NCBI GenBank assembly: GCA_030627085.1
Contig: DAOUSS010000002.1
Location: forward strand, 1-37,823
Source: Candidatus Stahliibacteriota bacterium
GTDB lineage: Bacteria > Hydrothermota > UBA3073
Direction: 5' to 3'
DNA length: 37,823 bases
The notes under the pieces are model-generated. The model ran no database searches and had not been told where the DNA came from. It saw nothing but the letters and a program-made list of their open reading frames with translations. Both the position numbers and the translations under genes were made by a program. Below, in pieces: positions 150-37,254 of the stretch; within the stretch, counting starts at the first letter, position 1; each line of letters starts with the position of its first letter.

Positions 150-223
150 CTCCTACCTATCCCTCTCTTCACTTTTCACCATTCACTTTTCACTCTTCAC
201 TCCTCACCCTTCTTCTCCTCTTC
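150..223. repeat. G-free TCACTTT-type word array spanning the dnaK stop
   Basis: ttcacttttcaccattcacttttcactcttcactcctcaccc. There is no G from 150 to 223. The dnaK TGA (rc) is at 197-199. Confidence 0.7.
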
Positions 224-2155
224 GTCTATCACTTCGTACTCTGCCTCCTGTGGACCCTCCTCCTTTTTTGGTTCTTCTTTCTTCTCTTCTTCTTTGCCTT
301 CTTCTGTCTTCTTATACATCTCTTCTGCCAGTTTATAAGATGCCTTTTGAACTTCCTCTATAGCTTTTTTTATTGCCTCTGTATCATTACCATCTTTCAC
401 TTTCTTCAAAGAGGTGAGGGCGTTCTCTATAGCACCTCTTTCCTCTTGTGTCACTTTATCACCAAATTCCCTCAATGATTTCTCTACTGAATATATAACC
501 GCATCTGCCTGGTTTCTTGTCTCTATCAACCCCTTCTTCTTCCTATCTTCTGCCTCATGTTCTTTTGCCTCCTTCTCCATCTTTTCAATCTCTTCCTGTG
601 ATAACCCGGAAGAGGATGTTATACGGATAGACTGTTCCTTGCTGGTTGCCTTGTCCTTCGCAGAGACATGCAGTATCCCGTCAGCATCTATATTAAACGT
701 AACATCGATCTGTGGAATTCCCCTTGGCGCAGGTGGGATGCCCATAAGATCAAATCTTCCAAGTGTGCGATTGTCTGCTGCCATAGGGCGCTCACCCTGA
801 AGTACATGTATGGTAACGGCTGTCTGTCCATCCTCCGCAGTTGTAAACACCTGACTCTTACGAGTTGGAATTGTAGTATTCCTTGGTATTATCGATGTCA
901 TAACCCCGCCAAGTGTCTCAATACCAAGCGTGAGGGGAGTCACATCCAGAAGCAGAACTTCCTTTTTTCCTTCTCTCCCTGCTGAAAGCATGTCACCCAT
1001 AATGCTTGCACCAATCGCAACAACCTCGTCAGGATTTACACCCTTGTGTGGCTCTTTGCCAAAGAAATTCCTAATAAATTCCTGTACCTTTGGCATTCTC
1101 GTCATACCGCCCACAAGTACTATCTCATCTATATCCTCCACGCCTTTTATACTGGAACCAGCTTTCTTTAAAGCATCTTCAAGCGCCTTTTCGGTTGGGG
1201 GCCTCATACCTTCCAGTAGATCCGATACCAGTGATTCAAGTTTTGCCCTCGTCACTTTCATCTCAAGGTGCTTTGGACCAGATGCGTCTGCTGTAATGAA
1301 CGGCAGATTGATATCAGTCTCGAGAACCGTTGACAGTTCACATTTTGCCTTCTCTGCCGCATCTCTTATACGCTGAAGTGCGGATCTATCCTTTCTTAAG
1401 TCAATTCCATACCCTTTTCGAAACTCATCCGCAAGCCAATCTACTATACGCTGGTCAAAGTTGTCTCCACCAAGATGTGTATCACCATTTACTGCAATAA
1501 CCTCAATCATAGGTGGTGTTTCTCTCATATCTATCTCCAGAATGGATATATCGAATGTTCCACCACCTAAGTCAAACACTGCAACTTTTTGTTTCTTTGA
1601 TGATCCAAGCCCGTATGCAAGCGATGCAGCTGTGGGTTCATTTATAATTCTCTGGACTTCAAGTCCTGCTATCTTACCAGCATCCTTCGTTGCCTGTCTT
1701 TGAGAATCATTGAAATAGGCGGGAACAGTAACCACTGCCTTTGTAATCTTTTCTCCGAGATATGCCTCTGCTGCTTCCTTCAGGTATTTGAGTATCATAG
1801 CAGACATTTCAGGTGGTGAAAACTGTTTACCCGCAACTATTACTCTCGCGTCTTGATGAGGACCTTTCACGACCTTATAAGGAACAAGTTTCATCTCCTC
1901 TGTCACTTCGCTGTGCCTTCTACCCATAAACCTCTTTATAGAGTATATCGTATTCTCTGGATTTGTTATCATTTGTCTCTTTGCTGAAGGACCAATAACC
2001 CATTCCTTTGTCTTTGGATTAAATGCAACCACGGAAGGTGTGGTCCTTCCACCCTCTGGATTTGGTATTACGATTCTCTCACTACCGTCCACGGCTGCAA
2101 CACAGGAGTTTGTTGTTCCAAGGTCTATTCCTATTATTCTTTCTTTTTTTGCCAT
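197..2155 (-). CDS. dnaK: Molecular chaperone DnaK (Hsp70)
   Basis: 652-aa ORF with [22 protein letters not shown] and DLGGGTFD. Full-length Hsp70 with an acidic E/K tail. GGAGG lies 7 nt upstream of the ATG, and the gene lies 4 nt downstream of grpE. Confidence 0.97.
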
Positions 2156-2159
2156 AATA

Positions 2160-2636
2160 TTACCTCCTTTTCTGTGTTACCACAACCCTTGCGGGTCGGG
2201 CAAGTTTCCCCTTTAAGTTATATCCCTTTTCAAGTTCCTCTATGACAATCCCATCCTTGTGCTTGGATGGAACCACAGATACTGCCTCGTGGTACCTGGG
2301 GTCAAATTCCTTACCTACTGATTTAAAAGCCTCAACACCTTCTTTTTTTAATATGCTTAACAGGTGCTTGTATATCAGTTCAATACCCTTAGAGAAGTCA
2401 TTATCGCTATGTTTCACCATAAGTGCCCTTTCAAAATTATCAACGACTGGGATGAATTCTTTGAGGAGCCTTTCGTTTGCATACTTCATAAATTCCTCAG
2501 ATTCCTTTTTCATACGCTTCTTATAGTTTTCAAGATCTGCAAGCGCCATAAGATATTTATTCCTTAGTTCCTTGATCTCTTTATTTTTGGTTTTTATCTC
2601 TTCTTCCAGTTCTTTTTTTGTCTTTTTCTTTTCCAT
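2160..2636 (-). CDS. grpE: Nucleotide exchange factor GrpE
   Basis: Charged coiled-coil N-terminus and GrpE C-terminal domain (..[16 protein letters not shown]). The tracked ORF starts at TTG 2657. I prefer ATG 2636 (MEKKKTKK..) because a GGGGGA run lies just upstream. Confidence 0.9.
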
Positions 2637-2649
2637 AAATCCCCCATAC

Positions 2650-2757
2650 AATATCAAAAATCAAAATGCAAAAAGTTGACGGTTAACAGGCTTCGGTGAA
2701 CTCAGCCGAACCGTTATCGGTGATCGGTAATATAAAATCTGTAATCTAAAATCTACT
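2650..2757. repeat. Composite spacer: A-rich words, CGGTKAW words, A-rich words
   Basis: aatatcaaaaatcaaaatgcaaaa (2650-2673). Then TTGACGG and cggttaa/cggtgaa/ccgttat/cggtgat/cggtaat (2676-2730). Then ataaaatctgtaatctaaaatc. Confidence 0.65.
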
Positions 2758-3448
2758 ACACATTCGTTACTATTATTCCAATCCTGTCCCATCGTATCTT
2801 TTTGAGCAACTTATACATAGGGATTTCTTTCTTCCAGGACCAGTGGATTATAAATGGCCTTCCCCTTAAATTATCATAAGGTAATGGTCCCCAGAATCGT
2901 GAGTCATAAGAGTTGTCTCTGTTATCCCCCATTAAAAAAACATAGTCCTCCGGTATCACTACAGGTCCAAAATTATCTCTGACATACCCGCCTGCATTTC
3001 GAAATTCACCATTCTGCCACAGGCTCTGATATCGTTCTCTGTCACTTATTTTGAGCGGAGGATAAATATGATGTTTATCCGTGTGAATAACATAGGGCTC
3101 CTCCACTTTTTCTCCATTTATATACAGAACCTTACTTCTTATTTCGACCGTATCTCCCGCAACTGCAATACATCGCTTGACAAAGTCCTTACGCTCAAGA
3201 GGAAATCTAAATATAACAATCTCTCCACTCTCTGGCTGATTCCACTTGAATACCATCTTGTTTCGAAATGGTACCTGCAACCCATAATTGAACTTTGTTG
3301 CAAAAAGGAAATCGCCAATAAGGAGGGTGTCTTCCATAGAACCCGTCGGTATCTTGTATGCCTGAATCACATATGCCCTTATTAAAATCACTGCCAGTAC
3401 AATAGAAACCACATCAAGTAACCATTTTCGTGTTTTCTTCTCTTTCAT
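2756..3448 (-). CDS. lepB: Signal peptidase I
   Basis: Has the GSMEDTL serine box, KRCIAVAGD lysine box and GDNRDNSYDSRFWG. ATG 3448 (MKEKKTRKW plus a TM helix) is preferred over the upstream start at 3490, with GGGGG 7 nt upstream. Confidence 0.92.
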   Translation of the reverse strand: MKEKKTRKWLLDVVSIVLAVILIRAYVIQAYKIPTGSMEDTLLIGDFLFATKFNYGLQVPFRNKMVFKWNQPESGEIVIFRFPLERKDFVKRCIAVAGDTVEIRSKVLYINGEKVEEPYVIHTDKHHIYPPLKISDRERYQSLWQNGEFRNAGGYVRDNFGPVVIPEDYVFLMGDNRDNSYDSRFWGPLPYDNLRGRPFIIHWSWKKEIPMYKLLKKIRWDRIGIIVTNV

Positions 3449-3595
3449 TAAAAGACCCCCTTGTATATAGTATTGTAAAAACCAAACCACACCTGCCTAC
3501 TGCAGGCAGAACAGTTTGCAAAGAGAGAAAAGCAGCAGATAATAAGTAGTACGGGTTACATATATAGTTGTATTTCATGGCAGAAAGTTACAAAA

Positions 3596-5443
3596 TCATT
3601 CTCTCACTGCAAGAAACGCCTCCTTCGGTATCTCGACCATTCCTATGCGTTTCATCTTTTTCTTACCTTCTTTCTGTCTCTCAAGCAGTTTACGCTTTCT
3701 AGTTATATCTCCTCCATAGCACTTCGCTGTTACATCCTTTCTTATGGGTGCAACCCTTGATTTTGCTATAATTCTGCCATTACTGGATGCCTGTATCACA
3801 ACCTCAAACAACTGCCTCGGTACAATCTCCTTCAATCTCCTTGTCAACCTTACTCCTTCGTGGTATGCCCTCTCTTTTGATACTATATTTGAAAAGGCAT
3901 CCACTTGCTTTCCATTTACCAATATGTCAAGTTTCACGAAATCTCCGGGTTTGTACTCCAGGAATTCATAGTTAAGAGAAGCGAAACCCTGGGATATTGA
4001 TTTCAAATTATCATAAAAATCAAATATAATCTCCGAGAGTGGAATCTCATATTCTATCTCCACCATATTCTCTCTGTGATAAAGAATAGACCTCTGTATA
4101 CCTCTTTTGCCTTCACAAAGCTCGAGTATTTTTCCTATATATTCAGGAGGCGTGAATATTTTTGCCCTTACAATCGGTTCCTCTATGTTCTCTATTTCTG
4201 TAGGCTTAGGAAGTTGTCCAGGGTTTTCTATCCAGATAATACCTCCATTACGGAGAACGATTCTGTATCGTATATTGGGAGAAGTAGTAACTATGGAGAT
4301 ACCCATCTCTCTCTCCAGTCTCTCTTCTATAATCTTCTTATGGAGCATACCAAGAAACCCGCATCTAAAACCAAATCCAAGCGCGGATGATACTTCAGGT
4401 TCATATACAAGACTTGAATCCGCAAGAACAAGTTTCTCAAGTGCCTCTTTTAACGAGTCATAATCCTCACCATCTGCTGGATATACCCCAGCGTACACAT
4501 ATGGAGTTACCTCACGATAGCCCGGAAGTGGCTCCACATTCTGGATTTCAATTTTTGCTTTTTGCGTTTTGCGTTTTGTCCCGCGGGAGCGGAATGCCGT
4601 CAAAGGCGGGGCATTTTGCACTTTGCATTTTGCACTTTGCATTTTCATTATGGTGTCTCCAACCTTTACATCCTTTGCATCTCTTATATTGCAAATTATA
4701 TACCCTACATCTCCTGATTCAAGAACCTCTGATTTTGTCCTGTCAGGGGAGAAGTAACCCACTTCCTGCACCTCAAAGGTCTTTCCACCTCTAAAAAACT
4801 GAACAATATCGCCAGCTCTTATACTTCCACACATAACCCTTATATAGGGAATAGCTCCTCTATATTCATCGTAGTATGAATCAAATATGAGCGCTTGTAA
4901 AAGGGAGCCTTCTCTTCGAGGTGATGGAATCTTCTCTATTATTCTTCCCATAAGTTCCTCAACCCCCCATCCGTTTTTTGCTGACACAAGGAGTATCTCA
5001 TCTGAATCAAGCAGATCTATAAGTTCTCTCCTTACATCCTCAATGTGTGCATTTGGAAGATCTATCTTGTTTATAACCGGAATTATTATAAGACCTGCGT
5101 CAAGTGCCATATAAAGATTACTCATAGTCTGTGCCTGAACCCCTTGAACTGCATCAACGAGAAGGATTACTCCCTCACATGCAGCAAGACTCCTTGTCAC
5201 CTCATAGGAAAAATCAACATGCCCCGGCGTATCTATAAGATTGAGTATAAACCCCTTATATTCCATTTTTATGGGATGTGCCTTTATCGTTATTCCGTGC
5301 TCCCTTTCAAGCTCCATCCTATCCAGAACCTGCTCCCTCATAAGTCTCCTTGGGATGGTCTCTGTAATCTCAAGCATCCTGTCCGCAAGGGTAGATTTTC
5401 CATGGTCTATATGGGCAATTATACAGAAATTACGTTTATCCAT
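3596..5443 (-). CDS. lepA: Translation elongation factor 4 (LepA)
   Basis: 615 aa with G motifs AHIDHGKST, DTPGH and NKID, and LepA-specific C-terminal KCYGGDITRKRKLLERQKEGKKKMK. It carries a ~32-codon low-complexity insert between domains II and III (see findings). No SD is visible. Confidence 0.96.
   Translation of the reverse strand: MDKRNFCIIAHIDHGKSTLADRMLEITETIPRRLMREQVLDRMELEREHGITIKAHPIKMEYKGFILNLIDTPGHVDFSYEVTRSLAACEGVILLVDAVQGVQAQTMSNLYMALDAGLIIIPVINKIDLPNAHIEDVRRELIDLLDSDEILLVSAKNGWGVEELMGRIIEKIPSPRREGSLLQALIFDSYYDEYRGAIPYIRVMCGSIRAGDIVQFFRGGKTFEVQEVGYFSPDRTKSEVLESGDVGYIICNIRDAKDVKVGDTIMKMQSAKCKVQNAPPLTAFRSRGTKRKTQKAKIEIQNVEPLPGYREVTPYVYAGVYPADGEDYDSLKEALEKLVLADSSLVYEPEVSSALGFGFRCGFLGMLHKKIIEERLEREMGISIVTTSPNIRYRIVLRNGGIIWIENPGQLPKPTEIENIEEPIVRAKIFTPPEYIGKILELCEGKRGIQRSILYHRENMVEIEYEIPLSEIIFDFYDNLKSISQGFASLNYEFLEYKPGDFVKLDILVNGKQVDAFSNIVSKERAYHEGVRLTRRLKEIVPRQLFEVVIQASSNGRIIAKSRVAPIRKDVTAKCYGGDITRKRKLLERQKEGKKKMKRIGMVEIPKEAFLAVRE
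4549..4647. repeat. Spacer-like word-array element inserted in-frame in lepA
   Basis: Sense strand: (tgcaaag/tgcaaaa)x4, GC-rich core ccccgccTTTGACGGcattccgctcccgcggg, then (acaaaac/gcaaaac/gcaaaaa). Confidence 0.8.
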
Positions 5444-5450
5444 AAATGTA

Positions 5451-5485
5451 GTAATTAGGTTATTGAGTTATTAAGTCATTGAGTG
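5451..5485 (-). repeat. TAATNACC-class word array directly upstream of lepA
   Basis: The minus strand reads cactcaatgacttaataactcaataacctaattac and then ..ATG. Confidence 0.7.
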
Positions 5486-5556: not shown

Positions 5557-5619
5557 TTACACATTACACATTCCACATTTCACATTCCACCTTCCACATT
5601 TCACATTACACATTCCACC
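5557..5619. repeat. G-free CACATT-type word array overlapping the panC stop
   Basis: ttacacattacacattccacatttcacattccaccttccacatttcacattacacattccacc. 63 nt with no G. Confidence 0.8.
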
Positions 5620-6911: not shown

Positions 6912-7023
6912 TCAGTATCACCCTCCTTTAACTCTTCAAGGTAAGAAACGGCAGTAACATCCGCCACAGCATAAATATAGATATTGAGAAGAAGACAATA
7001 GAAACCCATCAAAATCTATTTAT

Positions 7024-7052
7024 ATTATAACACAAAAATCCCAAAATTTCAA
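7024..7052 (-). promoter_or_regulatory. Sigma70-like promoter for folK-panC
   Basis: Minus strand TTGAAA (7052-7047), 17-nt spacer, TGtTATAAT (extended -10, TATAAT 7029-7024). Confidence 0.6.
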
Positions 7053-7091
7053 GTTTTTTTTGAAAAAAATATAATCCTGCCTTAAAAATAC

Positions 7092-7120
7092 TTGACAAAC
7101 AGGAAATTTTGGTGTAAAAT
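7092..7120 (+). promoter_or_regulatory. Sigma70-like promoter for ftcD (long structured leader)
   Basis: TTGACA 7092-7097, exactly 17-nt spacer, TAAAAT 7115-7120. Divergent from the folK promoter. Confidence 0.6.
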
Positions 7121-7140
7121 AGGCAAATGCAAGGGTCGAA

Positions 7141-7387
7141 TTGGACGCAGATTTACGCAGATTATCAAGATTTTTTATATTTCTTCTATTATTATGGTGT
7201 AAACAAGGGGAAATGGAGAACGTCCCACTTCGTTGGTGCCCGAAAGTGAAAAATATGAAGTTTTATAAGTTATTGTTTCTCAATAAAATATAATTTTTTC
7301 TTCTCCATTTCTCTATATTCACCCTTTCTCCTTATGATTTTCGCAGTTAATTCGTTATCCTGTTCATCTGCGTAAATCTGCGTCCAA
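7141..7387. repeat. 247-bp element bounded by perfect 22-bp inverted repeats (MITE-like element or long RNA hairpin)
   Basis: TTGGACGCAGATTTACGCAGAT (7141-7162) is the exact reverse complement of 7366-7387. A nested inverted repeat GAAATGGAGAA (7210-7220) / TTCTCCATTTC (7301-7311) lies inside. Confidence 0.8.
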
Positions 7388-7396
7388 AAATAACAA

Positions 7397-7452
7397 TTTT
7401 GCATTTTGATTTTTGATATTTGATTTTTAATTTTTTATATATTGTATGGGGG
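7397..7452 (+). repeat. T-rich TTTTGAT leader module (shared with the grpE leader and with 9374-9406)
   Basis: ttttgcattttgatttttgatatt (7397-7420) is identical to the reverse complement of 2650-2673. attgtatggggg (7441-7452) is identical to the reverse complement of 2641-2652. Confidence 0.8.
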
Positions 7453-7456
7453 TTAT

Positions 7457-9135: not shown

Positions 9136-9207
9136 ATAGTTTATTGGTTTAATAGTTTATTAGTTTAATAGTTTGTTAGTTTAATAGTTTATTAGTTTGT
9201 TAGTTGG
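9136..9207. repeat. C-free TAGTTTAT-type word array downstream of ftcD
   Basis: atagtttattggtttaatagtttattagtttaatagtttgttagtttaatagtttattagtttgttagttgg. 72 nt with no C. Confidence 0.8.
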
Positions 9208-9292
9208 TCAGGTTATTTGGAGTGACAGCGTTTACGTTTAAATTTGTTGAATCCATCGACCAATAAAAAAATACGAAATTGCAATTTTTTTC

Positions 9293-9321
9293 TTGACATT
9301 TCAAAAATTAAAGTGTATAAT
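9293..9321 (+). promoter_or_regulatory. Consensus sigma70 promoter
   Basis: TTGACA 9293-9298, 17-nt spacer, TATAAT 9316-9321, with an A/T-rich upstream region. Confidence 0.7.
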
Positions 9322-9322
9322 T

Positions 9323-9363
9323 TAGGTGTTAGGTGTCGGGTGATAGGTTCAAGGTGTTAGGTG
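9323..9363 (+). repeat. AGGTGTT word array (six SD-like words, period 7)
   Basis: AGGTG at 9324, 9331, 9352 and 9359. GGGTG at 9338. AGGTT at 9345. The array begins 2 nt after the -10 box. Confidence 0.8.
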
Positions 9364-9373
9364 AAAAATAACT

Positions 9374-9406
9374 CATTTTGATTTTTAATCTTTGATTTTT
9401 AATTTT
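9374..9406 (+). repeat. T-rich TTTTGAT leader module, third copy
   Basis: cattttgatttttaatctttgatttttaatttt, followed by accaGGGGG. Confidence 0.7.
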
Positions 9407-9513
9407 ACCAGGGGGTGCCTATAGGGAATTAGGGTATGCGGCCTGGTATAAAACTATTGTAACTGTCAATTTTGGCGTATGCCCTCATACTCCTGCAGGT
9501 ATAATGAATAAGC

Positions 9514-9538
9514 GCCAGGTCTCGTCCTGGCTTTTTTT
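9514..9538 (+). terminator. Rho-independent terminator
   Basis: GCCAGG (9514-9519), loop TCTCGT, CCTGGC (9526-9531), then T7 (9532-9538). It ends 27 nt before the murJ-like start. Confidence 0.75.
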
Positions 9539-9565
9539 ATAGAATAATGCGTTCGTAGGAGGAAT

Positions 9566-11098
9566 TTGGAAAGATTGCAGATAGAGTCTAAAGATAGAGG
9601 ATTGGCGAATGCTACATTCTGTGTAGTTTTTGCCAATGCCGTCTTTTTTCTCCTTAACTTTGGAAAAGGTGTCTTAATAGCCAATTACATTGGAGCAGGA
9701 ACAGATATGGATGCATATCTTGCGGTCGAATCCATCCCTGCTATTTTAATCGCTCTTCTTTCGGGGGCGCTTATTGCGGGTGTCATTCCTGAATTATCAA
9801 AGATAAAGAATTCAAAAGAAGGGTTGAATTTGTCCAACTCCATCTTGAACATAACTATAATCAGCGCATCTTTCATGGTGTTTATATTGATAATCTCCTC
9901 CCGTTTCATTATCCCTACCTTCTTTGAGTTAGAGAATTCAAAGATAGCGATAAAATTAAGTTATTTCTTATTTCCATTTCTGATAACAGGACTCGCGTTT
10001 AGTGTACTTAAAAGTATTGCAAACACACACAAAATCTTTCTGCTCCCTGCCCTGTCCCCTTCAATATATATTCTCATCATTATTCTATGCGTTATATTAC
10101 TCTCTCAAAGATTGGGAGTTATTAGTCTTGGCATCGGCGTCCTCGTTGGTTCCATTCTACAGGTATTATTCATATTTTCTGAGCTAAAAAAACATGGATT
10201 TCGTTATAAACCTTATGTGGACTTTCATAATCCTCACCTTTCTAAAACCGCCAGAATGACTGCGCCTTTGGTTGTTGGTTCTGCCCTTGCAAATTTCAAT
10301 GTTTTTGTAGACAGAGTAATGGCATCAAGGCTGTCTGCAGGTAGTGTTTCAGCACTCCATTACGGTTATATCCCTCTCACATTTGTTCTTAGCTTCTTCA
10401 CGGTAGCGATCTCAACCAGTATATTGCCCTATTTTAGTGAGTATGCAGCATCCAATAATATTAAGAAAATCAAGAGCACATTTATGTCAGGGGTAAATCT
10501 TTCTATATTTATTACATTGCCGGTAGCGGTATTGTTTTGGTCGATTGCTACTCCTCTTGTTAAGATCGTTCTTGAGAGAGGAGCATTTACTTCAAACAAT
10601 ACTGCGGCGGTCTCAACGGCACTTAGACTCTATGCTCTGGGGCTTCCCTTTATAGCAATTAATGCTATCATCGTAAGAGTTTACCATGCTCTTCAAAAAA
10701 ATATAGTGATAATGTTAGTTGCTATACCGTATGTTGTATTCAATATTCTCTTCAACTGGATTTTGTCAAAACCCCTTGGACATGGAGGAATTGCTCTTTC
10801 CACCTCGATTGATTATTTTATTGTCGTATCTATCCTGTTTGTTATATTAAACAGTCAGATCGGGGGCTTATTTGCAAAAAGACATCTGATTTCTTGCTGT
10901 AAAACTATCTTATGCACCTGTATTATGGCATTCTCCATTTATGCCTTTCTCTATTATTCTAAAGAATTTGCCATAGTTACCAGTTTATTATCATCAATAA
11001 TTATTGGTCTGGCGATATATTGGTTGACTGCGTTACTCATCAGACACGGAGAGATAAAAAATCTTTGTAATATATCCAGAAAAATACTCAACAGATAG
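9566..11098 (+). CDS. murJ: MurJ/MviN-family (MOP superfamily) lipid-linked oligosaccharide flippase
   Basis: 510 aa and polytopic (~14 TM). N-terminal GAGTDMDAYLAVESIPAIL resembles the MurJ signature. TTG start lies only 3 nt after AGGAGG, so the start is uncertain. As the first gene of the polysaccharide locus it could act as a Wzx-type flippase. Confidence 0.7.
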   Translation: MERLQIESKDRGLANATFCVVFANAVFFLLNFGKGVLIANYIGAGTDMDAYLAVESIPAILIALLSGALIAGVIPELSKIKNSKEGLNLSNSILNITIISASFMVFILIISSRFIIPTFFELENSKIAIKLSYFLFPFLITGLAFSVLKSIANTHKIFLLPALSPSIYILIIILCVILLSQRLGVISLGIGVLVGSILQVLFIFSELKKHGFRYKPYVDFHNPHLSKTARMTAPLVVGSALANFNVFVDRVMASRLSAGSVSALHYGYIPLTFVLSFFTVAISTSILPYFSEYAASNNIKKIKSTFMSGVNLSIFITLPVAVLFWSIATPLVKIVLERGAFTSNNTAAVSTALRLYALGLPFIAINAIIVRVYHALQKNIVIMLVAIPYVVFNILFNWILSKPLGHGGIALSTSIDYFIVVSILFVILNSQIGGLFAKRHLISCCKTILCTCIMAFSIYAFLYYSKEFAIVTSLLSSIIIGLAIYWLTALLIRHGEIKNLCNISRKILNR

Positions 11099-21467: not shown

Positions 21468-22865
21468 ATGCCTTTACTCTTGATAATATTTACAGTATAT
21501 TTAGAACCTTGCCTCTTGGAGTATGAGGCAGTAAAAGAAGGAAAAGCCTTCTTCTGGAGAATGGATAAGGTACGAGCAGAATCATTCATCCCAGAGATGG
21601 ATATATCATTTTGCGGTTTTGGACTGTACGATAGTAACAGAAAAGGAAATGGTGTATTTGAGCTTATGATAAGACAGGGATTCCCTATACATCCATTTGT
21701 GAAGGGTGAGGTGGATATAGGTGCATTTCAAGAGGTTGGCGATGGACAGGGGATATTGCCCTATTGGGACCCTCTCTTAGAGCCAAAGTATATAATATGT
21801 AACTTTGAAACAGAGCCAGTTGTGTCCCATACAAATTTTGATGTCAGGACAGAAAAGGCATACCTTCTCTTTGATATAGGAACACTGTCCATTGGGACAG
21901 GTAGAAACAGACTGAAAGTTGGTCCTGGATACAGGAGCAATCTTCTTCTGTCTGGTAGAGGACAGCCTCTCAACTTCCTGTACAACGCAAGGGTGAAAAA
22001 GGGACCACTACATCTTTTTGCCTTCAATGCAGGCATAGAGGACTCGATTGATGGAAAGAGGATCTCCTGTCAGAGGATAGAACTGTATCTCTCTTGTGTA
22101 ACAATAGGAATTACAGAGGCGGTTCTGCACAAAAAGGAAAACTTTCTAAAGTATGTAAATCCGGTAGAATTTTATTACATCACGCAGAGAAGGGGCAAAG
22201 ATAACGAAGATAATCTTGTTGCAAGTAGTGATATTACATTTACAAAAAATGGGAAAAAATACTATCTCGAACTTCTGCTTGACGACCCAATTATCTTCCA
22301 TAAGGAGAGACCCTTTAAGGGTGGAATGATGCTGGGAATGTATCTTACAGACCCGTTTGGTATGCCATCCTCTGATTTCAGAATAGAGGCGACTGCACTT
22401 CCAAGATGGACATATACCCATGACTACAGTGACCAGATAAATGCCCTTACAGCAAACGGTCTTCCACTCGGATTTTTTGGTGGGTCAGATTGCATTGATA
22501 TTTATACAGAATTCACAAAATACTGGACACGGGATACTGTTTACTCCCTGCTGCCTACTCCCTACTCCCCACTGCCTACTTCCTACTTCTCTCTTATACT
22601 GGAGTATCTTGCCCATGGTGATGGAAAACTTAACATTGGTTGGCAGGACGAAAAAGAGAATTATCCACAACCAAGAAAGATAAAAATTCCCTCAGGCTGT
22701 AAAGAAGAGAGATTGAGAGTGGGTATTAAAGGAACCCTTGCTAAAGAAAAATTTTCCATAACTACAGGGGTATATGTCGAGCGGATAAAAAATTATATGA
22801 ACCGGGATGGTAATAACTTCACCAGGGTCTCGATAAAAACTGCTACTCTTTTTACTCTACCCTGA
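21468..22865 (+). CDS. Hypothetical outer-membrane protein, possibly capsule-assembly Wzi-like
   Basis: 465 aa with GGAGG 5 nt upstream. NRLKVGPGYRSNLLLSGRGQPL resembles the Wzi-family G-x-GPG..S-L-LS motif as I recall it from memory. Contains the in-frame CTACTCC word array at 22541-22592. Confidence 0.45.
   Translation: MPLLLIIFTVYLEPCLLEYEAVKEGKAFFWRMDKVRAESFIPEMDISFCGFGLYDSNRKGNGVFELMIRQGFPIHPFVKGEVDIGAFQEVGDGQGILPYWDPLLEPKYIICNFETEPVVSHTNFDVRTEKAYLLFDIGTLSIGTGRNRLKVGPGYRSNLLLSGRGQPLNFLYNARVKKGPLHLFAFNAGIEDSIDGKRISCQRIELYLSCVTIGITEAVLHKKENFLKYVNPVEFYYITQRRGKDNEDNLVASSDITFTKNGKKYYLELLLDDPIIFHKERPFKGGMMLGMYLTDPFGMPSSDFRIEATALPRWTYTHDYSDQINALTANGLPLGFFGGSDCIDIYTEFTKYWTRDTVYSLLPTPYSPLPTSYFSLILEYLAHGDGKLNIGWQDEKENYPQPRKIKIPSGCKEERLRVGIKGTLAKEKFSITTGVYVERIKNYMNRDGNNFTRVSIKTATLFTLP
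22541..22592 (+). repeat. CTACTCC-type pyrimidine word array inside the Wzi-like CDS
   Basis: ttactccctgctgcctactccctactccccactgcctacttcctacttctctc encodes VYSLLPTPYSPLPTSYFSL. Confidence 0.7.
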
Positions 22866-24782: not shown

Positions 24783-24798
24783 GACCTATAATGAATAT

Positions 24799-24843
24799 AG
24801 ACCGAAGACCCTAATGACCAATAACCAGTGACTAATGACTAAC
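24799..24843 (+). repeat. AGACC / TAATGACC word array upstream of and overlapping the guaB start
   Basis: agaccgaagaccctaatgaccaataaccagtgactaatgactaac, preceded by TATAAT at 24787-24792. Confidence 0.7.
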
Positions 24844-26287: not shown

Positions 26288-26373
26288 AAGACTAAAGACC
26301 AAAGACATAAGACTACAGACCAAAGACTTACTTACTCAATTACTTAATAACCTAATGACCCAATAACCTAAGA
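26288..26373 (+). repeat. AAAGACC then TAATNACC word arrays upstream of hslV
   Basis: aagactaaagaccaaagacataagactacagaccaaagactt, then acttactcaattacttaataacctaatgacccaataacctaag. Confidence 0.75.
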
Positions 26374-28768: not shown

Positions 28769-28850
28769 TTAATTACTTAATTACCTAATAACCTAATTAC
28801 TTAATGACCTATTGATCCAATTACCTATTGACTCAATGACCTAATGACCC
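28769..28850 (+). repeat. TAATNACC word array (about 10 words) upstream of aspS
   Basis: ttaattacttaattacctaataacctaattacttaatgacctattgatccaattacctattgactcaatgacctaatgaccc. Confidence 0.8.
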
Positions 28851-28871
28851 AATTCTAAATAAGAACTTATT

Positions 28872-31156: not shown

Positions 31157-31300
31157 GAAATTCTAAGCACGAAATTCTAAATCCTAAACAATATCAAAAT
31201 TCAAATGTTCTAAATTCCAAACAAACGACTTATTTTGGCATTTGGAATTTGAGATTTAGGATTTGTTTAGAATTTGGTTCTTGAGATTTAGAATTTTCTA
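31157..31300. repeat. Inverted pair of TTCTAAA / TTTAGAA word arrays in the rplM leader
   Basis: The left arm 31157-31225 and right arm 31236-31300 are imperfect reverse complements. One example is tctaaattccaaa versus tttggaatttgaga. Confidence 0.7.
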
Positions 31301-31313
31301 ACCCGGGGGTGTT

Positions 31314-31709: not shown

Positions 31710-31730
31710 GCAAGCAGGAGAAAGGAATAA

Positions 31731-31811
31731 ACACTCAACATTTCACATTTCACATTTCACATTTAACATTCAACACTCAACATTTCACATTCAACATTTC
31801 ACATTTCACAC
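31731..31811 (+). repeat. G-free CATTTCA-type word array between rplM and rpsI
   Basis: 81 nt with no G: acactcaacatttcacatttcacatttcacatttaacattcaacactcaacatttcacattcaacatttcacatttcacac. Confidence 0.8.
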
Positions 31812-31828
31812 TTTATTACGGGGGTTAT

Positions 31829-32221
31829 ATGGAACAAGTATTATTAAAGACGGGAAGACGCAAAAGGGCAACTGCCCGCGTAAAACTCACTGAAGGAGAA
31901 GGGAAAATAATGGTGAACGGAAAGGAACTCACTGAGTTTTTTGGAGGAAGAGGAGATCTTATATATAAGGTAAACTCTTCTCTGCGGGTTACCAACACGA
32001 CGGGGAAATTCAATATAAAAGCAAAGGTAGAAGGTGGTGGCATCACGGGCCAGGCTGGGGCTATTTCACTTGGAATAGCAAGGGCACTTGTAACCCTGGA
32101 GCCCGAATTGAGGCCCCTTCTCAAGAAAGAGAGCTTACTTACAAGAGATCCGAGGGAAGTAGAGAGAAAGAAATATGGGCACCCGAAGGCAAGAAAGAGA
32201 TTCCAGTTCTCAAAGAGATAA
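31829..32221 (+). CDS. rpsI: 30S ribosomal protein S9
   Basis: 130 aa with [10 protein letters not shown].. and C-terminal [30 protein letters not shown] lies 4 nt upstream of the ATG. Confidence 0.96.
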
Positions 32222-32275
32222 TTCCAGTTATGTATTAATAAACCACGAGAGTAGCACAAGATTGGCACAAGATCC

Positions 32276-32309
32276 GAGTCATTGAGTTATTAGGTCATTA
32301 AGTTATTAA
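32276..32309. repeat. Antisense-oriented TAATNACC-class array downstream of rpsI
   Basis: gagtcattgagttattaggtcattaagttattaa. attgagttattagg (32281-32294) is the exact reverse complement of 32395-32408. Confidence 0.75.
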
Positions 32310-32355
32310 AAGATTGCTTGCTCGATGACGCAGATTAATGCAGATAAAAGGACAG

Positions 32356-32427
32356 TAATTAAGTTATTGACCTAATTACCTAATGACCCAGTTACCTAAT
32401 AACTCAATTATCCAATAACCTAATTAC
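32356..32427 (+). repeat. TAATNACC word array upstream of the sugar dehydrogenase
   Basis: taattaagttattgacctaattacctaatgacccagttacctaataactcaattatccaataacctaattac. Confidence 0.8.
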
Positions 32428-32433
32428 TGTTTT

Positions 32434-32442
32434 TGATATAAT
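32434..32442 (+). promoter_or_regulatory. Extended -10 promoter element upstream of the sugar dehydrogenase
   Basis: TGATATAAT (TGnTATAAT). No good -35 box. Confidence 0.45.
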
Positions 32443-32491
32443 CTGTGTTCTCTGTGAACTCTGTGGTTATAAAAAGAAAGATGGAGGGTGT

Positions 32492-33817: not shown

Positions 33818-33852
33818 ACAGCGTTTGGTTATAATGCAAGTTTTACCATCAT

Positions 33853-33881
33853 TTGACGGTATCTAAACAATATTCTATATC
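33853..33881 (+). promoter_or_regulatory. Candidate promoter for ftsB-like/coaD
   Basis: TTGACG 33853-33858, 17-nt spacer, TATATC 33876-33881. Confidence 0.4.
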
Positions 33882-33918
33882 CACATTTAACCATGTCCAG
33901 ACCGGGTGTAAGCCTCTT

Positions 33919-34221
33919 ATGCGGCGCAAACCGAATATCAAAAGTTATCTAAAAAGGCACAGACGCATACTTGTTATACTGGGAATTGCTCTACTTGCCT
34001 ACATATTCATTTTTGGAGGCCATGGTTTAACCAGAATTCTTATCCTGAAAAAAAACATAAGGGATACAGAGAAACAGACAACTATATCGTCTGCTATAAG
34101 AGAAACTCTCATCAGTGATAAACACATGCTTGAAAGCGATAAGGTTTACCTCGAAAGGGTAATAAGAGAAACCTTTGGTATGATAAAGGAAGGAGAAAAA
34201 TGCACACTGAAGGTAAAATAG
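33919..34221 (+). CDS. Septum formation initiator family protein (FtsB/DivIC-like)
   Basis: Basic N-terminus, a single TM (ILVILGIALLAYIFIF), a coiled coil and C-terminal YLERVIRETFGMIKEGE. The start is uncertain. ATG 33919 is preferred over TTG 33853, which reads as a -35 box. Confidence 0.7.
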   Translation: MRRKPNIKSYLKRHRRILVILGIALLAYIFIFGGHGLTRILILKKNIRDTEKQTTISSAIRETLISDKHMLESDKVYLERVIRETFGMIKEGEKCTLKVK

Positions 34222-34718
34222 GCATATGCGTTTATCCCGGTACATTTGACCCTATCACGAATGGACATATAGACATAATAAAGAGGGCAAGGTACCTGTT
34301 TCCGAAGGTGAAAGTGCTTGTGGCAAGAGATGCGGGCAAGAATACACTCTTCTCTTTCACAGAGAGGGTCCGTATCGTCAAAACTGCCATCAGTAGCATA
34401 GAGGGAGTTGAGTGTGAAGGGTTTGATGGACTTCTTATAGACTATTTAAAGAGAACCGGGATAACCATAGTTGTGCGGGGTTTAAGGGCTGTCTCTGACT
34501 TCGACTACGAATTCCAGTTTACACTTATGAATAGAAAATTATACCCACCCGTTGAATTCGTATTCGTGATGCCAGGAGAAGAGTATTTTTTCCTTTCCTC
34601 GTCCCTTGTAAAGGAGATTGCCTCTCTCGGTGGTGATGTAGGAAAATTCGTGCCAAAAATTGTGGAAGAGAAAATGAAGAAAAAGTTGGGGGCGTATGAA
34701 ACTTGTGATAAAAATTAA
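34200..34718 (+). CDS. coaD: Phosphopantetheine adenylyltransferase
   Basis: YPGTFDPITNGHIDII and RGLRAVSDFDYE..SSSLVKEI. GGAGAA lies upstream. Overlaps the ftsB-like stop. Confidence 0.94.
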   Translation: MHTEGKIGICVYPGTFDPITNGHIDIIKRARYLFPKVKVLVARDAGKNTLFSFTERVRIVKTAISSIEGVECEGFDGLLIDYLKRTGITIVVRGLRAVSDFDYEFQFTLMNRKLYPPVEFVFVMPGEEYFFLSSSLVKEIASLGGDVGKFVPKIVEEKMKKKLGAYETCDKN

Positions 34719-34983
34719 GGAGATAAGGGGAAATTGTCCTGTTTATAAAGAAGATGACATATTCGTCATAGAGGAGGGTTATAAACTTGTTTCTGATATT
34801 CCATTATGCATGCACTCTCTATCCTCCATTATGCCCTATTACATTCCACTATCAAGGGGAGTCTCTCCTAAGTCTCTCGGGCTGGCAAGAGAAGATGTTC
34901 AAAAGGCATACATTCAATGTCTTGACCCCTGCAAATATACTGGCGGTGGTACGGTTGTATTTGAGATAATGCAGAGTAGTTAA
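34696..34983 (+). CDS. Small Cys-containing protein, TIGR04076-like (function unknown)
   Basis: 95 aa. IKEIRGNCPVYKEDD..PLCMHSLSSIMPYY..YIQCLDPCKYTGGGTVVFEI matches my recollection of the TIGR04076 family. 23-nt overlap with coaD. Confidence 0.65.
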   Translation: MKLVIKIKEIRGNCPVYKEDDIFVIEEGYKLVSDIPLCMHSLSSIMPYYIPLSRGVSPKSLGLAREDVQKAYIQCLDPCKYTGGGTVVFEIMQSS

Positions 34984-34990
34984 TTTATAT

Positions 34991-35392
34991 TTATCCTATC
35001 CTTCTTGTTGCTATAAGGAATTTCTCTCCACCAACACCCCTCCCAATGTCCATTATCTGTACGAGTTTGTCAACGGTTACCGACTTATCCGCCCTTATTA
35101 TTACTATCTTCTCTTCACTCTCTACTAACAGTTTTTCTAACTCTGTGGAAAAGTCCTGCAGAGTTATCTCCCTATCATTCAAGAACAATCTACCCTCCGT
35201 GGTTATCGTAACCAGAATGTCCTTTCTTGAAACGACATCACTCGTGTATGCCCTTGGAAGTTTTACCCTTATACCCGGCTCAAGCACATATGTAGATGTA
35301 AGAAGAAAAAATATAAGCAAAAGCAGGATGACATCTGCAAGAGATACGGGAGAAAATGTAGAGAGTCTATTGTGGTGCATTTGTATATTCAT
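34991..35392 (-). CDS. ExbD/TolR-family biopolymer transport protein
   Basis: 133 aa with an N-terminal TM (LADVILLLLIFFLLT) and a periplasmic domain (KIVIIRADKSVTVDKLVQIMD). Confidence 0.88.
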   Translation of the reverse strand: MNIQMHHNRLSTFSPVSLADVILLLLIFFLLTSTYVLEPGIRVKLPRAYTSDVVSRKDILVTITTEGRLFLNDREITLQDFSTELEKLLVESEEKIVIIRADKSVTVDKLVQIMDIGRGVGGEKFLIATRRIG

Positions 35393-35429
35393 ACTACCTC
35401 CATATAATTAAATCATTGTGTATAATATT

Positions 35430-35505
35430 AACCGCAGAGCGCGCAGAGAACACAGAGTTTTTATTTATTTTTTCTTAGCGAGCTCTGCGAACTCTGCGGT
35501 TTTTT
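35430..35505. repeat. CGCAGAG-word palindromic hairpin between the exbB-like and exbD-like genes
   Basis: ACCGCAGAGcgCGCAGAG (35431-35448) pairs with CTCTGCGaaCTCTGCGGT (35483-35500), giving 9+7 bp. A T6 run follows on the plus strand. Confidence 0.75.
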
Positions 35506-35516
35506 CATAAAATCCG

Positions 35517-36107
35517 TTAAACTGTTATCCCCGCTATCTCATCTGCCGTTGTTTCAATACCTTCCTTTATACTTTGTACCCTTCCCAAAAAGTAGTTATA
35601 GAATATATATGTTATTATTCCTACACCGAGTCCCACTGCTGTTGTAACAAGTGCCTCCCAGACTCCTCCTGCAAGTACAGATGCATTCACATTTCCACCC
35701 AGACGCTCAACCTGCATAAATGCCTTTATCATACCAGTCACTGTCCCAAGAAACCCTAAGAGAGGAGCTACCCCTGCGACTGTTGCGAGCCCTGTAAGAT
35801 ACCTCTCAAAGCCCAGGAGTTCTTTTCTCGCTACTGTCTCCATAGTTTTCTCTTTTCCCTCTTCTGCACCGAGTCCAGCGGATATTATTCTCGTTATCGG
35901 TGTGTCGGTTCTGGAGCAGATCGCAACCGCAGACTGAACATCACCATCTTTGAGTTTTATCTTACACTTCTCTATCACATCCTCTGGTGTTCTTGTTCTA
36001 CGATAGTATATAAATCTCTCTATGATTATTGCTATACCAAAAAGCGATGCGATACCTATGGGTATTATCATATATCCACCCTTTATCAGAATCTCAAATA
36101 GACTCAT
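35517..36107 (-). CDS. MotA/TolQ/ExbB-family proton channel protein
   Basis: 196 aa with 3 TM, LGFLGTVTGMIKAF and a C-terminal helix. AGGAGGGG SD lies 16 nt after the prfB stop. Confidence 0.9.
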   Translation of the reverse strand: MSLFEILIKGGYMIIPIGIASLFGIAIIIERFIYYRRTRTPEDVIEKCKIKLKDGDVQSAVAICSRTDTPITRIISAGLGAEEGKEKTMETVARKELLGFERYLTGLATVAGVAPLLGFLGTVTGMIKAFMQVERLGGNVNASVLAGGVWEALVTTAVGLGVGIITYIFYNYFLGRVQSIKEGIETTADEIAGITV

Positions 36108-36123
36108 AACCCCTCCTGTTAAA

Positions 36124-37189
36124 TTAAGAAGTTCTAAACAAAAGCCATTCTTTAATAAAATCGTCTATGTCTCCATCCATAATTTTCTCGACAGCAGCTG
36201 TTTCACAACCGGTACGGTGATCCTTAATCAGTTTATATGGATGTAGTACATATGAGCGTATCTCTCTTCCCCAACCTATCTCTCTCTTGCCCTTCTCCAA
36301 TTTCTCTAATTCCTTCCTTTCCTCTTCCCTCTTCATCTCGTAGAGTTTCGCTCGCAGTACCTTTAATGCGTTTATTCTGTTCTGATACTGTGAACGCTCA
36401 CTCTGACAGGTTACTACTATTCCGGTCGGGATGTGTGTAATCCTCACCGCTGTACTCAATTTATTCACATTTTGACCCCCTGGTCCTGATGAACGGAATG
36501 CATCCATCTTCAAATCACTCTCTTTGAGTTCTACTTCACCCGACTCTTCAATAACAGGATATACAAAACAGGATGCGAATGATGTATGTCTCCTTGCCCC
36601 AGAATCAAAAGGAGATATGCGCACCAGTCTATGGATACCCGTTTCTGATTTTAGATATCCGTATGTATATTTACCCTTTATCTCTACTGTAGCATCCTTG
36701 ATACCTGCTACATCTCCTGGTTCAAGGTCAAGTATATTTGCCGAAAATTTGTGTCTTTCTGCCCACTTTAAATACATACGGAGTAACATCTCTGCCCAAT
36801 CGCATGCCTCTGTACCGCCTGCACCCGGATGTATGGCGAGTATTGCATCTCTTTTGTCATCCTCATCCCTTAACATAAACTGCAGTTCAACTTCGCTCAG
36901 CCTTTTTTCAAGGGATTCTATCTCCTTTGTAATCTCCTTATCCTCTTCCATAAGGGAATACAGTTCTCTTGTATCCTGTATATCCTTACTCAGACTATCG
37001 TATACGGACAGTGTGTTCTTTATATCTGCCACTTCTTTGGTAATCTCTTTTGCCTTTATATTGTCATTCCAGAAGTCAGGTTTTGTAGTTTCTTCTTCAA
37101 GTTGTGAAAGTCTCTTTCTGAGTTTGTCTACTTCAAAGAAACCTCCCGAGCCTTTTCACCCGCTCATTTAATTGCTCTATATTACCCAT
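36124..37189 (-). CDS. prfB: Peptide chain release factor 2, requires programmed +1 frameshift
   Basis: Frame 0 is ATG 37189 MGNIEQLNERVKRLGRFL then TGA (37135-37133). The +1 frame from 37134 gives EVDKLRKRL.. and joins the tracked ORF. SPF (RISPFDS) and GGQ (SGPGGQNVNK) are present. 37134-36124 is 1011 nt and in frame. Confidence 0.95.
37133..37150 (-). other. prfB +1 frameshift site: SD-like GGGAGG, 3-nt spacer, CTT TGA A
   Basis: The minus strand reads CTC GGG AGG TTT CTT TGA A. It has the same architecture as E. coli AGG GGG TAT CTT TGA C. Confidence 0.9.
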
Positions 37190-37197
37190 CACCCCTC

Positions 37198-37254
37198 CTA
37201 ACAAACTAACCAACTAACCACCTAACCAACTACCAAACTATCCAACTACTTCTA
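37198..37254 (-). repeat. Word array forming the prfB 5' leader (C-free on the RNA strand)
   Basis: The plus strand ctaacaaactaaccaactaaccacctaaccaactaccaaactatccaactacttcta has no G. It lies exactly between the -10 box and GGAGGGG-ATG. Confidence 0.8.

Follow-up and report, generated by a model that had tools for sequence, protein, structure and literature searches.

The window analyzed here is a 37,823-nt housekeeping segment of a chromosome from the Candidatus Stahlbacteria / WOR-3 lineage (GC ~40%, with a GC skew that tracks the coding strand throughout). The minus strand carries dnaK, grpE, lepB, lepA, panC, and folK as well as, near the end of the window, prfB; the plus strand carries ftcD, murJ, a polysaccharide gene cluster, guaB, hslVU, a ptsN-like gene, and aspS, followed by def, rplM, rpsI, and a UDP-sugar dehydrogenase gene (ugd). 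No tRNA or tmRNA genes were found in the window. The spacers between these genes contain arrays of tandem, imperfect words with a period of 7 or 8 nt (Table 1), which are the subject of this report; an earlier annotation made from the sequence alone (hereafter the original prediction) had described them as arrays of degenerate words placed in 5′ leaders.

Degenerate period-7 and period-8 arrays were found by Tandem Repeats Finder (TRF) at essentially every coordinate named in the original prediction, and higher-order periods of 14, 16, 21, 32, and 42 nt were also reported. Pooled intergenic self-match at lags 7 and 8 was 0.34, as compared to 0.28 ± 0.007 in 300 dinucleotide-preserving shuffles of each spacer separately (z ~8.7; reached by 0/300 shuffles), with harmonics at 14, 16, 21, and 24 nt, while coding DNA was flat. 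Strict array coverage amounted to 485 of 3656 nt of intergenic DNA (13%), with 0 in every shuffle, and to 145 of 34167 nt of coding DNA (0.4%); seven G-free runs of at least 40 nt were observed as compared to 1.8 expected (0/300 shuffles). Both the periodicity and the G-free runs thus exceed the composition-matched shuffles against which it had been proposed to check them. Like the arrays described as short tandemly repeated repetitive (STRR) sequences or long simple sequence repeats (SSRs), the units lie head to tail within the 5-11 nt class with heptamers predominant, exceed the length expected by chance for their composition (0/300 shuffles), are mostly intergenic, with units that are not a multiple of 3 rare in open reading frames (ORFs), and differ in copy number by whole units among related strains. 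They are neither CRISPR arrays nor classical microsatellites, as had been stated before, being contiguous, degenerate 7-8 nt units in which TRF found no spacers. Phase-variable contingency SSRs are also a poor match, given the 7-8 nt units, a copy number that is equal at 99.8% identity, and the housekeeping nature of the genes.

An assembly or sequencing artefact, which the original prediction had asked to be considered, has a negligible probability. Short-read assemblies could in principle miscount copies, but no actual support for this was found: a 14-unit TAATNACC array was identical in three independent assemblies (99.8% identity), and because these reproduce it, the arrays are not an assembly artefact; arrays of relatives were seen in NCBI, TPA, JGI, and ENA assemblies; the arrays are shorter than one read; and array-containing ORFs stay open and are conserved across the clade.

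Orthologous loci were available from relatives identified through the aspS protein, the nearest being L001 (a Candidatus Stahlbacteria metagenome-assembled genome, MAG; 98% at the amino acid level) and L003 (a WOR-3 MAG; 97%), followed by the WOR-3 MAGs L002 (UBA3073; 84%) and L004 (51%), and from further loci obtained via LepA (L066, L067, and L068, 95%; L069, 92%; L070, WOR-3 JGI_Cruoil_03_44_89, 83%). Comparison of these loci showed that arrays arise and change by gain and loss of whole units. While identity at 4-fold sites between the window and L001 was 0.919, solitary-array spacers were 0.79-0.86 identical with large gaps, and gaps within orthologous arrays were multiples of the unit (7, 14, and 21 nt or 8, 16, and 32 nt). 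The panC GTGAAAT array has 8 copies in the window, 11 in L069 (21-nt indel), and none in L066; the ACATTTC array in the rpsI leader has 10 copies in the window, ~5-6 in L001 (indels of 7 and 21 nt), and none in L002; and the TAATNACC array in the lepA leader has ~14 units in L066 and 4 in L069 at the same site. The grpE leader array contains one additional 7-nt unit in L069. In the aspS leader, L001 presented indels of 14, 16, and 32 nt plus extra arrays, and L002 a CGCAGAT-stem element instead; the leader of hslV (SD-less, i.e., lacking a Shine-Dalgarno sequence; start 26395) keeps both of its word families, and their order, in L002, with other copy numbers. Whole spacers differ as well: the aspS-def spacer, array-free and 45 nt long in the window, has 56 nt in L003, while in L001 and L002, where it holds five arrays, it reaches 133 nt and 247 nt, respectively; between y4 and y5 the window has 130 nt and relatives have 24 nt; and between y5 and prfB the window has 22 nt, as compared to 490 nt in L001.

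At least some arrays grow in place from local sequence. The promoter and the SD/start region of prfB are identical in the window and L001, while the leader words between them differ (TTGGTTAG x6 in the window; AAAGGAA-like words plus ATTAGCA x4.6 in L001), and the window array is in register with the 8-mer beside the SD (AGTTTGTT|AGGAGGGG), as expected for in-place growth by slippage. A word swap in the leader was also observed for the small transcript predicted after ftcD. As a separate observation on prfB, the usual programmed +1 frameshift context (GGGAGG TTT CTT TGA AG) is present at 37131-37147 on the minus strand, and the release-factor 2 profile match begins at model position 52 in the long prfB ORF (36124-37032).

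Array growth has also left its mark inside a protein. LepA contains a heptamer-encoded insertion after its GDTI motif (KMQNAKC corresponds to 21 nt, or 3 units), which is limited to this WOR-3 clade, missing from outgroup LepA proteins, and varies in length in steps of 7 aa (21 nt) among seven relatives; the window copy contains an added GC-rich piece of 19 aa. This pattern suggests that the array-forming process is old, lineage-wide, and filtered by the reading frame. With the ORF at 22542-22587 and the arrays that run over the dnaK and panC stop codons, the lepA insertion (4553-4649) shows that arrays are not limited to spacers.

Table 1. Arrays and related elements in the window, with the corresponding intervals reported by TRF.
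Position	Strand	Feature	TRF interval	Details
165..212	-	GTGAAGA/GTGAAAA array	165-212	Period 7, ~6.9 copies; G-free on + strand; overlaps dnaK stop codon (197-199) and extends into downstream spacer (TRF, translation)
2650..2674	-	TTTTGCA/TTTTGAT array	2653-2674	~3 copies; grpE leader, then GGGGG SD, ATG 2636
2723..2755	-	TAGATTT array		Period 7, ~3.9 copies; directly after lepB stop
4553..4649	-	lepA in-frame insertion		AAAATGC/AAAGTGC array, GC-rich core, AAAACGC array; encodes KMQSAKCKVQNAPPLTAFRSRGTKRKTQKAK
5450..5484	-	TAATNACC array	5450-5484	Period 8, ~4 copies, sense; ends 6 nt before SD-less lepA start 5443
5560..5618	-	GTGAAAT array	5560-5618	Period 7, 8.4 copies; overlaps panC stop codon
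7141..7387	+	Hairpin element, ftcD 5′ region		CGCAGAT-word arms 7141-7171 and 7357-7387; 31 nt, 90% complementary
7396..7435	+	TTTTGAT array	7396-7435	~4.8 copies; ftcD leader, then GGGGG SD, ATG 7457
9137..9205	+	TAGTTTAT array	9137-9205	Period 8, 8.6 copies, C-free
9322..9406	+	AGGTGTT array, then TTTTGAT array	9322-9363, 9376-9406	6 copies (9322-9363) and 4.4 copies (9376-9406)
22542..22587	+	TACTCCC array		6.6 copies, within ORF; encodes YSLLPTPYSPLPTSY
24799..24842	+	AGACC words, then TAATGACC-like array	24811-24842	Between -10-like TATAAT (24787-24792) and guaB start
26288..26371	+	AAGACCA array, then TAATNACC array	26288-26327, 26345-26371	5.7 and ~3.4 copies; hslV leader
28770..28854	+	TAATNACC array	28770-28854	Period 8, 10.5 copies; ends 17 nt before SD-less aspS start 28872
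31158..31296	+	Inverted TTCTAAA/TTTAGAA arrays		Long hairpin, rplM leader, then GGGGG SD; z -2.6
31731..31811	+	ACATTTC array	31738-31810	Period 7, 10.4 copies, G-free; rplM-rpsI intercistronic leader before GGGGG SD
32277..32465	+	ugd-upstream composite	32277-32309, 32368-32427	Inverted GGTNATTA array 32277-32309; CGCAGAT words 32320-32345; TAATNACC array 32364-32428, 7.2 copies; extended -10 TGATATAAT 32434-32442; CTCTGTG words 32442-32465
35416..35516	.	~100 nt insertion		Inverted CGCAGAG arms 35430-35457 and 35472-35501; T-run; z -4.3 and -4.8
37198..37254	-	TTGGTTAG array	37198-37248	Period 8, 6.4 copies; prfB leader, from 12/12 promoter 37283-37255 to GGAGGGG SD, ATG 37189

The arrays are a property of the lineage. 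By a single metric, period-7/8 arrays accounted for 9-41 nt/kb at the clade loci (46 and 69 nt/kb in two short fragments), whereas no arrays were present at 55 of the 61 outgroup loci (~1 Mb in all, drawn from many phyla) and the remainder contained no more than 3 nt/kb. Across six clade loci, period 7 accounted for 1342 nt, period 8 for 860 nt, and period 9 for 89 nt, with 0 nt at periods 4-6 and 10-13. These six loci contain 59 arrays in ~20 word families, the largest being TAATNACC with 15 arrays. The claim that each spacer has its own word was borne out only in part, since words are reused: the 20 arrays of the window fall into 11 families, as compared to 16.6 ± 1.8 for random words (P = 0.006).

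The original prediction had offered selection as one possible reason for the three-letter composition of several arrays. The intervals themselves are exact, with G missing from 150-223, 5557-5619, 31731-31811, and 37198-37254, and C missing from 9136-9207. However, G makes up 15% and C 18% of intergenic DNA, so that approximately half of random 7-8-mers contain no G or no C, and the long G-free and C-free runs result from repetition of a word without that base. Among 55 distinct unit variants in arrays with a base-free consensus, 14 changed toward the absent base as compared to 13.4 expected (P = 0.64), and selection for a three-letter alphabet was therefore rejected. Stop codons in three frames were also considered as a selected feature and rejected, being present in 12 of 16 arrays (approximately the AT-rich expectation) and almost absent from the rpsI array. 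The rpsI and aspS leader arrays fit an unstructured, C-rich, G-poor sense tract of at least 70 nt, as in Rho utilization (rut) sites, while the dnaK, panC, prfB, ftcD-3′, and AGGTGTT arrays are C-free in sense, the opposite of a rut-like tract; no uniform composition or word favored binding of Rho, CsrA, or Csp.

With regard to RNA structure, solitary arrays read as sense RNA have a predicted mean of -0.018 kcal/mol/nt, as compared to -0.125 for coding segments. Four spacers contain inverted array pairs, with folds more stable than those of shuffles (z -2.6 to -5.3); the earlier notion of leaders that cannot form helices thus fits the solitary arrays, predicted to be nearly unstructured, and does not extend to these four spacers. 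The hairpin element in the ftcD 5′ region (z -5.3) has arms that enclose 185 nt and lies downstream of an 11/12 promoter (7092-7120).

At both 12/12 consensus promoters in the window (9293-9321 on the plus strand and 37283-37255 on the minus strand), an array begins only a few nt past the -10 and occupies the leader. All five -10 boxes cited in the original prediction were confirmed; the 12/12 promoters include those at 9316-9321 and 37260-37255, and the other three are -10-only candidates. Many arrays do occupy the stretch from a promoter or stop codon to a start codon. The accompanying claim that arrays lie between the -10 box and the start codon holds for the two 12/12 promoters but not in general, as the largest array of the rpsI-ugd spacer (TAATNACC, 32364-32428) lies upstream of an extended -10, outside the leader, and others lie at stops or in ORFs. 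Four arrays are on or just past stop codons (dnaK 165-212, lepB 2723-2755, panC 5560-5618, and ftcD 9137-9205); the last of these begins 7 nt past the ftcD stop, ~90 nt upstream of the next promoter, and is represented by other words in relatives.

Two SD flavors were observed, GGGGG before grpE, ftcD, rplM, and rpsI (e.g., 2641-2645, 7449-7453, 31304-31308, and 31820-31824) and GGAGG(G) before folK, murJ, ugd, prfB, dnaK, and others (e.g., 32480-32486 and 37192-37198), while lepA, guaB, hslV, aspS, def, and ptsN have starts without an SD. The predicted association between array word and SD was confirmed in the window, with GGGGG at the four genes named and none after the TAATNACC arrays of lepA, guaB, hslV, and aspS. 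The latter arrays are in sense orientation, 6-24 nt before the start, as is also the case for dnaJ in relatives, and TTTTGAT arrays are always followed by a GGGGG SD (grpE and ftcD in the window, rplM in L002). A role of TAATNACC arrays as leaderless-mRNA promoters was rejected, as no -10-like hexamer with a terminal T was suitably spaced (lepA, aspS, and L066 lepA).

These positions bear on the explanation put forward in the original prediction, in which arrays would be selected as structure-free ribosome landing pads; in the form considered here, these would be S1-accessible landing or standby sites, with TAATNACC replacing the SD and U-rich TTTTGAT enhancing it. Filling of the leader after both perfect promoters, the sense orientation of TAATNACC and TTTTGAT beside their respective starts, and the retention of an array in the prfB and candidate small RNA (sRNA) leaders despite a change of word are all consistent with this explanation, as is the predicted lack of structure in solitary arrays, which came out less structured than random-word arrays in a test based on ~7 independent word families; the same idea has been proposed for TAACTGA repeats. 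However, def and ptsN in the window and aspS in L002 have SD-less starts without any array, the rpsI array is missing in L002 and the lepA array in L070, several arrays lie after stops, upstream of a -10, or in ORFs, four spacers form strong hairpins, and the three-letter property carries no signal of selection. In addition, the GTGAAAT family occurs both ways relative to transcription (sense after dnaK and panC, antisense, as ATTTCAC, before rpsI). That genes need their arrays is contradicted by orthologues that keep the start context without the array or with another word. We thus regard selected landing pads, the leading alternative, as possible but doubtful.

The alignment of orthologous spacers, which had been suggested as a check, showed that words can be swapped or lost between strains, with a few strongly conserved blocks. 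Between the window and L001, the spacer that holds the rplM-leader hairpin aligns without gaps at 97.7% identity, as compared to 91.9% at 4-fold sites; in L002 the hairpin is made of other words. Upstream of ugd, a module consisting of a TAATNACC array, TGTTTYTGAYATAAT, and CTGTG words is conserved in L001 and L002 (3 units, as compared to 7 in the window), and the region (TAATNACC x3, extended -10, and CTGTG words) is far above neutral identity between L001 and L002; the same module recurs before guaB in L002. Between the same two genomes, a GTAATCA/AAAGGAA/GACCAAT block is 0.91 identical, as compared to 0.53 at 4-fold sites (P = 8e-12). A minority of arrays, judged by these identities, thus appears to be under purifying selection or recently exchanged.

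Conservation of this kind raises the possibility that the words represent a code, i.e., periodic sites for proteins (S1, Csp, CsrA-like, or a transcription factor) or for pairing in trans, joined in a regulatory network. Few words are in use, and these are employed repeatedly and conserved in the clade; the conserved block includes AAAGGAA, with one GGA per 7 nt; TAATNACC x3 beside the ugd extended -10 is kept in three genomes; and each major family occurs both ways in transcribed regions (GUGAAAU after dnaK and panC and AUUUCAC before rpsI; UUUUGAU in leaders and AAAAUCA/AAAAUGC inside lepA). On the other hand, an unrelated word can replace the word at one locus with promoter and SD unchanged, copy number and presence differ among close strains, ~20 families in ~110 kb would require many factors, and the analysis identified no protein as a candidate for binding them. 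Beyond the clade, TAATNACC gave 104 matches in IMG/VR, as compared to 69, 96, and 96 for scrambled 8-mer controls. A network based on such a code is unlikely, and a conserved vocabulary acting as a functional code, through multivalent protein-read sites or trans pairing of complementary arrays, is hardly more than a slim prospect. If true, expression of chaperones, translation factors, and ribosomal proteins would be coupled, an SD-independent initiation route would exist, and array-rich phage contigs would exploit the same host machinery.

The scan for YAATNACY x3 from which these matches derive yielded more than 120 metagenome contigs in addition to the 104 IMG/VR contigs (GC 0.2 to 0.69). 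Cross-phylum conservation of the TAATNACC word was rejected, as the scrambled controls match about as often; only one metagenome match, L116, carries clade marker cassettes, and no orientation bias was observed in the mixed metagenome sample (57 sense upstream of an ORF, 50 opposite). Some of the matching contigs, including the phage contig L287 with a terminase gene, carry at least 2 arrays per kb, and array-rich genomes are more widespread than the literature suggests. L287, which encodes the terminase large subunit, and L289 (both IMG/VR viral contigs, GC 0.56) contain 28-30 different 7-9 nt arrays in 12-13 kb, many of them in recurrent inverted pairs between genes, e.g., (GTCCAAA)n ... (GACCTTG)n. 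Within the clade, two octamer arrays of 7 and 15.5 units (GGTGATGG and CCCATTAA; L070 20284-20340 and 20797-20920) flank a gene encoding a 23S rRNA intervening-sequence protein (PF05635).

Array words are also carried by small mobile elements with target-site duplications (TSDs), and word modules occur at several loci that differ among strains. A family of miniature inverted-repeat transposable elements (MITEs) of 370-470 bp, with GTAYTGTCAAAAA as terminal inverted repeat (TIR), subterminal CCACAGAG words, internal inverted arrays, and an 8-9 bp TSD, is polymorphic among strains that are 90-99.8% identical: copies are found at L066 3392-3763 and L001 8484-8950, and empty sites at L067 ~750 and window ~36118. 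The insertion at 35416-35516, present in neither L001 nor L002 and flanked by a TTAAA duplication, resembles a MITE more weakly, and solitary arrays do not resemble one. This insertion also resembles a terminator on both strands and carries an extended -10-like motif, TGTGTATAAT. A cassette with the form [GGACGCAGATnnACGCAGAT ... ATCTGCGTAAATCTGCGTCC] AAAAATAACAA (TTTTGAT)n GGGGG ATG is found before ftcD in the window, L066, and L070; the two relatives, unlike the window, also have it in front of grpE, and copies differ by an inversion of its interior. Nested inverted arrays were seen in the ftcD-folK region of both relatives, and a 20-nt palindrome (CCTGCC..GGCAGG) is inserted within an array in L070. 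A dispersed 20-nt palindrome similar to repetitive extragenic palindromic sequences (CCTGCCTnnCGGnAGGCAGG) was observed at 3492-3510 in the window and in several copies in L001, L002, L066, and L070, one of the L070 copies lying inside a TTTTGAT array.

An extension of these observations would hold all arrays to be remnants of foldback or MITE elements with tandem-word arms, and solitary arrays to be half-elements left after deletion. Filled and empty sites with a TSD for the 370-470 bp element, the ~100 nt window insertion with its CGCAGAG arms, the nested inverted arrays, and the palindrome within the L070 array would all be expected in this case; solitary arrays, however, grow in place from their flanks with unit-wise indels and have no TIR or TSD around them, and the restriction to periods 7 and 8 is not predicted by mobility alone. 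A common origin of all arrays from mobile elements is therefore improbable.

Taken together, the balance tips slightly toward arrays being slippage minisatellites of the STRR or long-SSR type, with 7-8 nt units, accompanied by small MITE-like elements, that are tolerated, filtered by selection, and in a few cases co-opted. Slipped-strand mispairing or unequal recombination would act as generator, with units just long enough to evade mismatch repair, and miniature mobile elements may seed further arrays. Purifying selection would spare arrays in untranslated leaders, intercistronic spacers, and promoter-upstream DNA, while in ORFs only stop-free multiples of 21 nt would survive. The filter may also prefer combinations of word and orientation that leave the start site open, in which case solitary leader arrays would resemble structure-free landing pads without being built as such. 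The constrained minority would comprise the rplM-leader hairpin, the TAATNACC array beside the ugd promoter, the U-rich TTTTGAT words before GGGGG SDs, and, in relatives, the GTAATCA/AAAGGAA block between aspS and def.

Several results weigh against slippage with passive filtering. TAATNACC, TTTTGAT, AAGACC, and AAAGGAA are common to the window, L002, and L070, whose 4-fold sites are near-saturated; conservation and reuse of words mean that neutral slippage alone is insufficient, and that mobile re-seeding or selection on words is needed. TAATNACC is in sense orientation beside SD-less starts at 6/6 independent clade loci, and TTTTGAT is in sense orientation beside starts at 4/4 loci. The -0.018 kcal/mol/nt of solitary arrays compares to -0.094 ± 0.029 for random-word arrays of the same composition (0/400 simulations), and this comparison, which rests on only ~7 independent word families, is suggestive of solitary arrays being less structured. 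The slippage account also leaves unexplained why arrays accumulate in this lineage and not in others.

The arrays at 9322-9406 lie directly after the 12/12 promoter at 9293-9321, at the predicted 5′ end of a short conserved transcript; L070 has 3 AGGTG units here and L066 a GATTACT-type array instead, with indels of 7 and 14 nt. Downstream of this perfect promoter and the variable arrays, we observed a ~130 nt element between ftcD and murJ (9407-9540, plus strand; ACCAGGGGGTGCCTATAGGG ... GCCAGGTCTCGTCCTGGC TTTTTTT) that is conserved in L066 and L070 and ends in an intrinsic terminator (9514-9540). This element, upstream of murJ, could be a riboswitch, an attenuator, or an sRNA. Rfam offered no match for it; a search of the window against Rfam yielded 0 matches at the gathering score, and at E ≤ 1 only chance-level matches were obtained for 9280-9580 and 6912-7445.

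Heptamer arrays (STRR) were recognized 35 years ago, but neither a function nor a cause has become accepted. Mazel et al. 1990 reportedly described STRR sequences as short tandemly repeated repetitive heptamers of heterocystous cyanobacteria, and Mrazek et al. 2007 are said to have found that heptamers dominate the 5-11 nt class of long simple sequence repeats, with slippage as the proposed origin. The WOR-3 arrays share with both the presence of several heptamer families per genome, the intergenic location, and the proposed origin by slippage, but stand apart in their co-dominant octamers and in what appears to be a very high density per kb of intergenic DNA. Elhai et al. 2008 reportedly described very small dispersed repeats in cyanobacteria; inverted arms, TSDs, strain polymorphism, and tiny palindromes inside heptamer arrays are features in common with such repeats, with MITEs, and with foldback elements. 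This likeness is confined to a subset, namely the CACAGAG/CGCAGAG elements and the 20-nt CCTGCC...GGCAGG palindrome, solitary arrays being without TIR or TSD.

The arrays are therefore not an undescribed class of element, as had been suggested, in view of cyanobacterial STRR, the long SSRs of Mrazek 2007, and the TAACTGA (PMC4679880) and GGGAATC (PMC4692102) repeats. The heptamer repeats described for Xanthomonas and Nostoc, with the words GGGAATC / GGGGAYT (Rehm et al. 2015, PMC4692102), likewise show extensive variation in length and sequence and occasional inverted pairs, but are G-rich and quadruplex-forming, while the words of WOR-3 are AT-rich and for the most part contain no G or no C.

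The closest precedent is provided by the TAACTGA heptamer repeats of marine Beggiatoaceae, some cyanobacteria, and Bacteroidetes (MacGregor 2015, PMC4679880), with which nearly every behavioral feature is common although the word differs. These repeats, for which S1, Csp, and CsrA have been proposed as readers (PMC4679880), are also tandem 7-nt words, mostly intergenic and in forward orientation a few nt before SD-less starts, some of them before ribosomal-protein genes or over upstream stops, with stop codons in three frames, reverse copies in ORFs, strain differences in 7-nt increments, and, in some genomes, admixture with other heptamers. Among WOR-3 families, the TAATNACC arrays lie in sense a few nt before SD-less starts as TAACTGA repeats do, and the other families do not; TAACTGA itself occurs in the window as one single copy per strand, with no tandems.

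A full-text literature search on Stahlbacteria found no mention of repeats, and the lineage is thus newly reported for arrays. To what is known it adds a compact, AT-rich genome with array-packed spacers, in which array DNA by a strict threshold is put at about one fifth of the intergenic total, and a sharp limit to periods 7 and 8, and it offers natural experiments in the prfB array swapped between identical promoter and SD, the filled and empty sites, and the in-frame lepA array. Why lineages accumulate 7-8 nt units (e.g., through a property of repair or polymerase) and whether unstructured repeat leaders stand in for the SD are thereby testable; in practice, arrays confuse gene-start prediction, promoter prediction, and binning of these MAGs. 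As compared to the TAACTGA repeats, in which one word dominates, mostly in 2-6 units, WOR-3 arrays belong to many families with up to 10-15 units, have an 8-nt period in half of the array DNA, form many inverted pairs, and are found in a different phylum. The array property belongs to the lineage, and what is new is the lineage itself, the co-dominant octamers, and an unusually rich repertoire of words.

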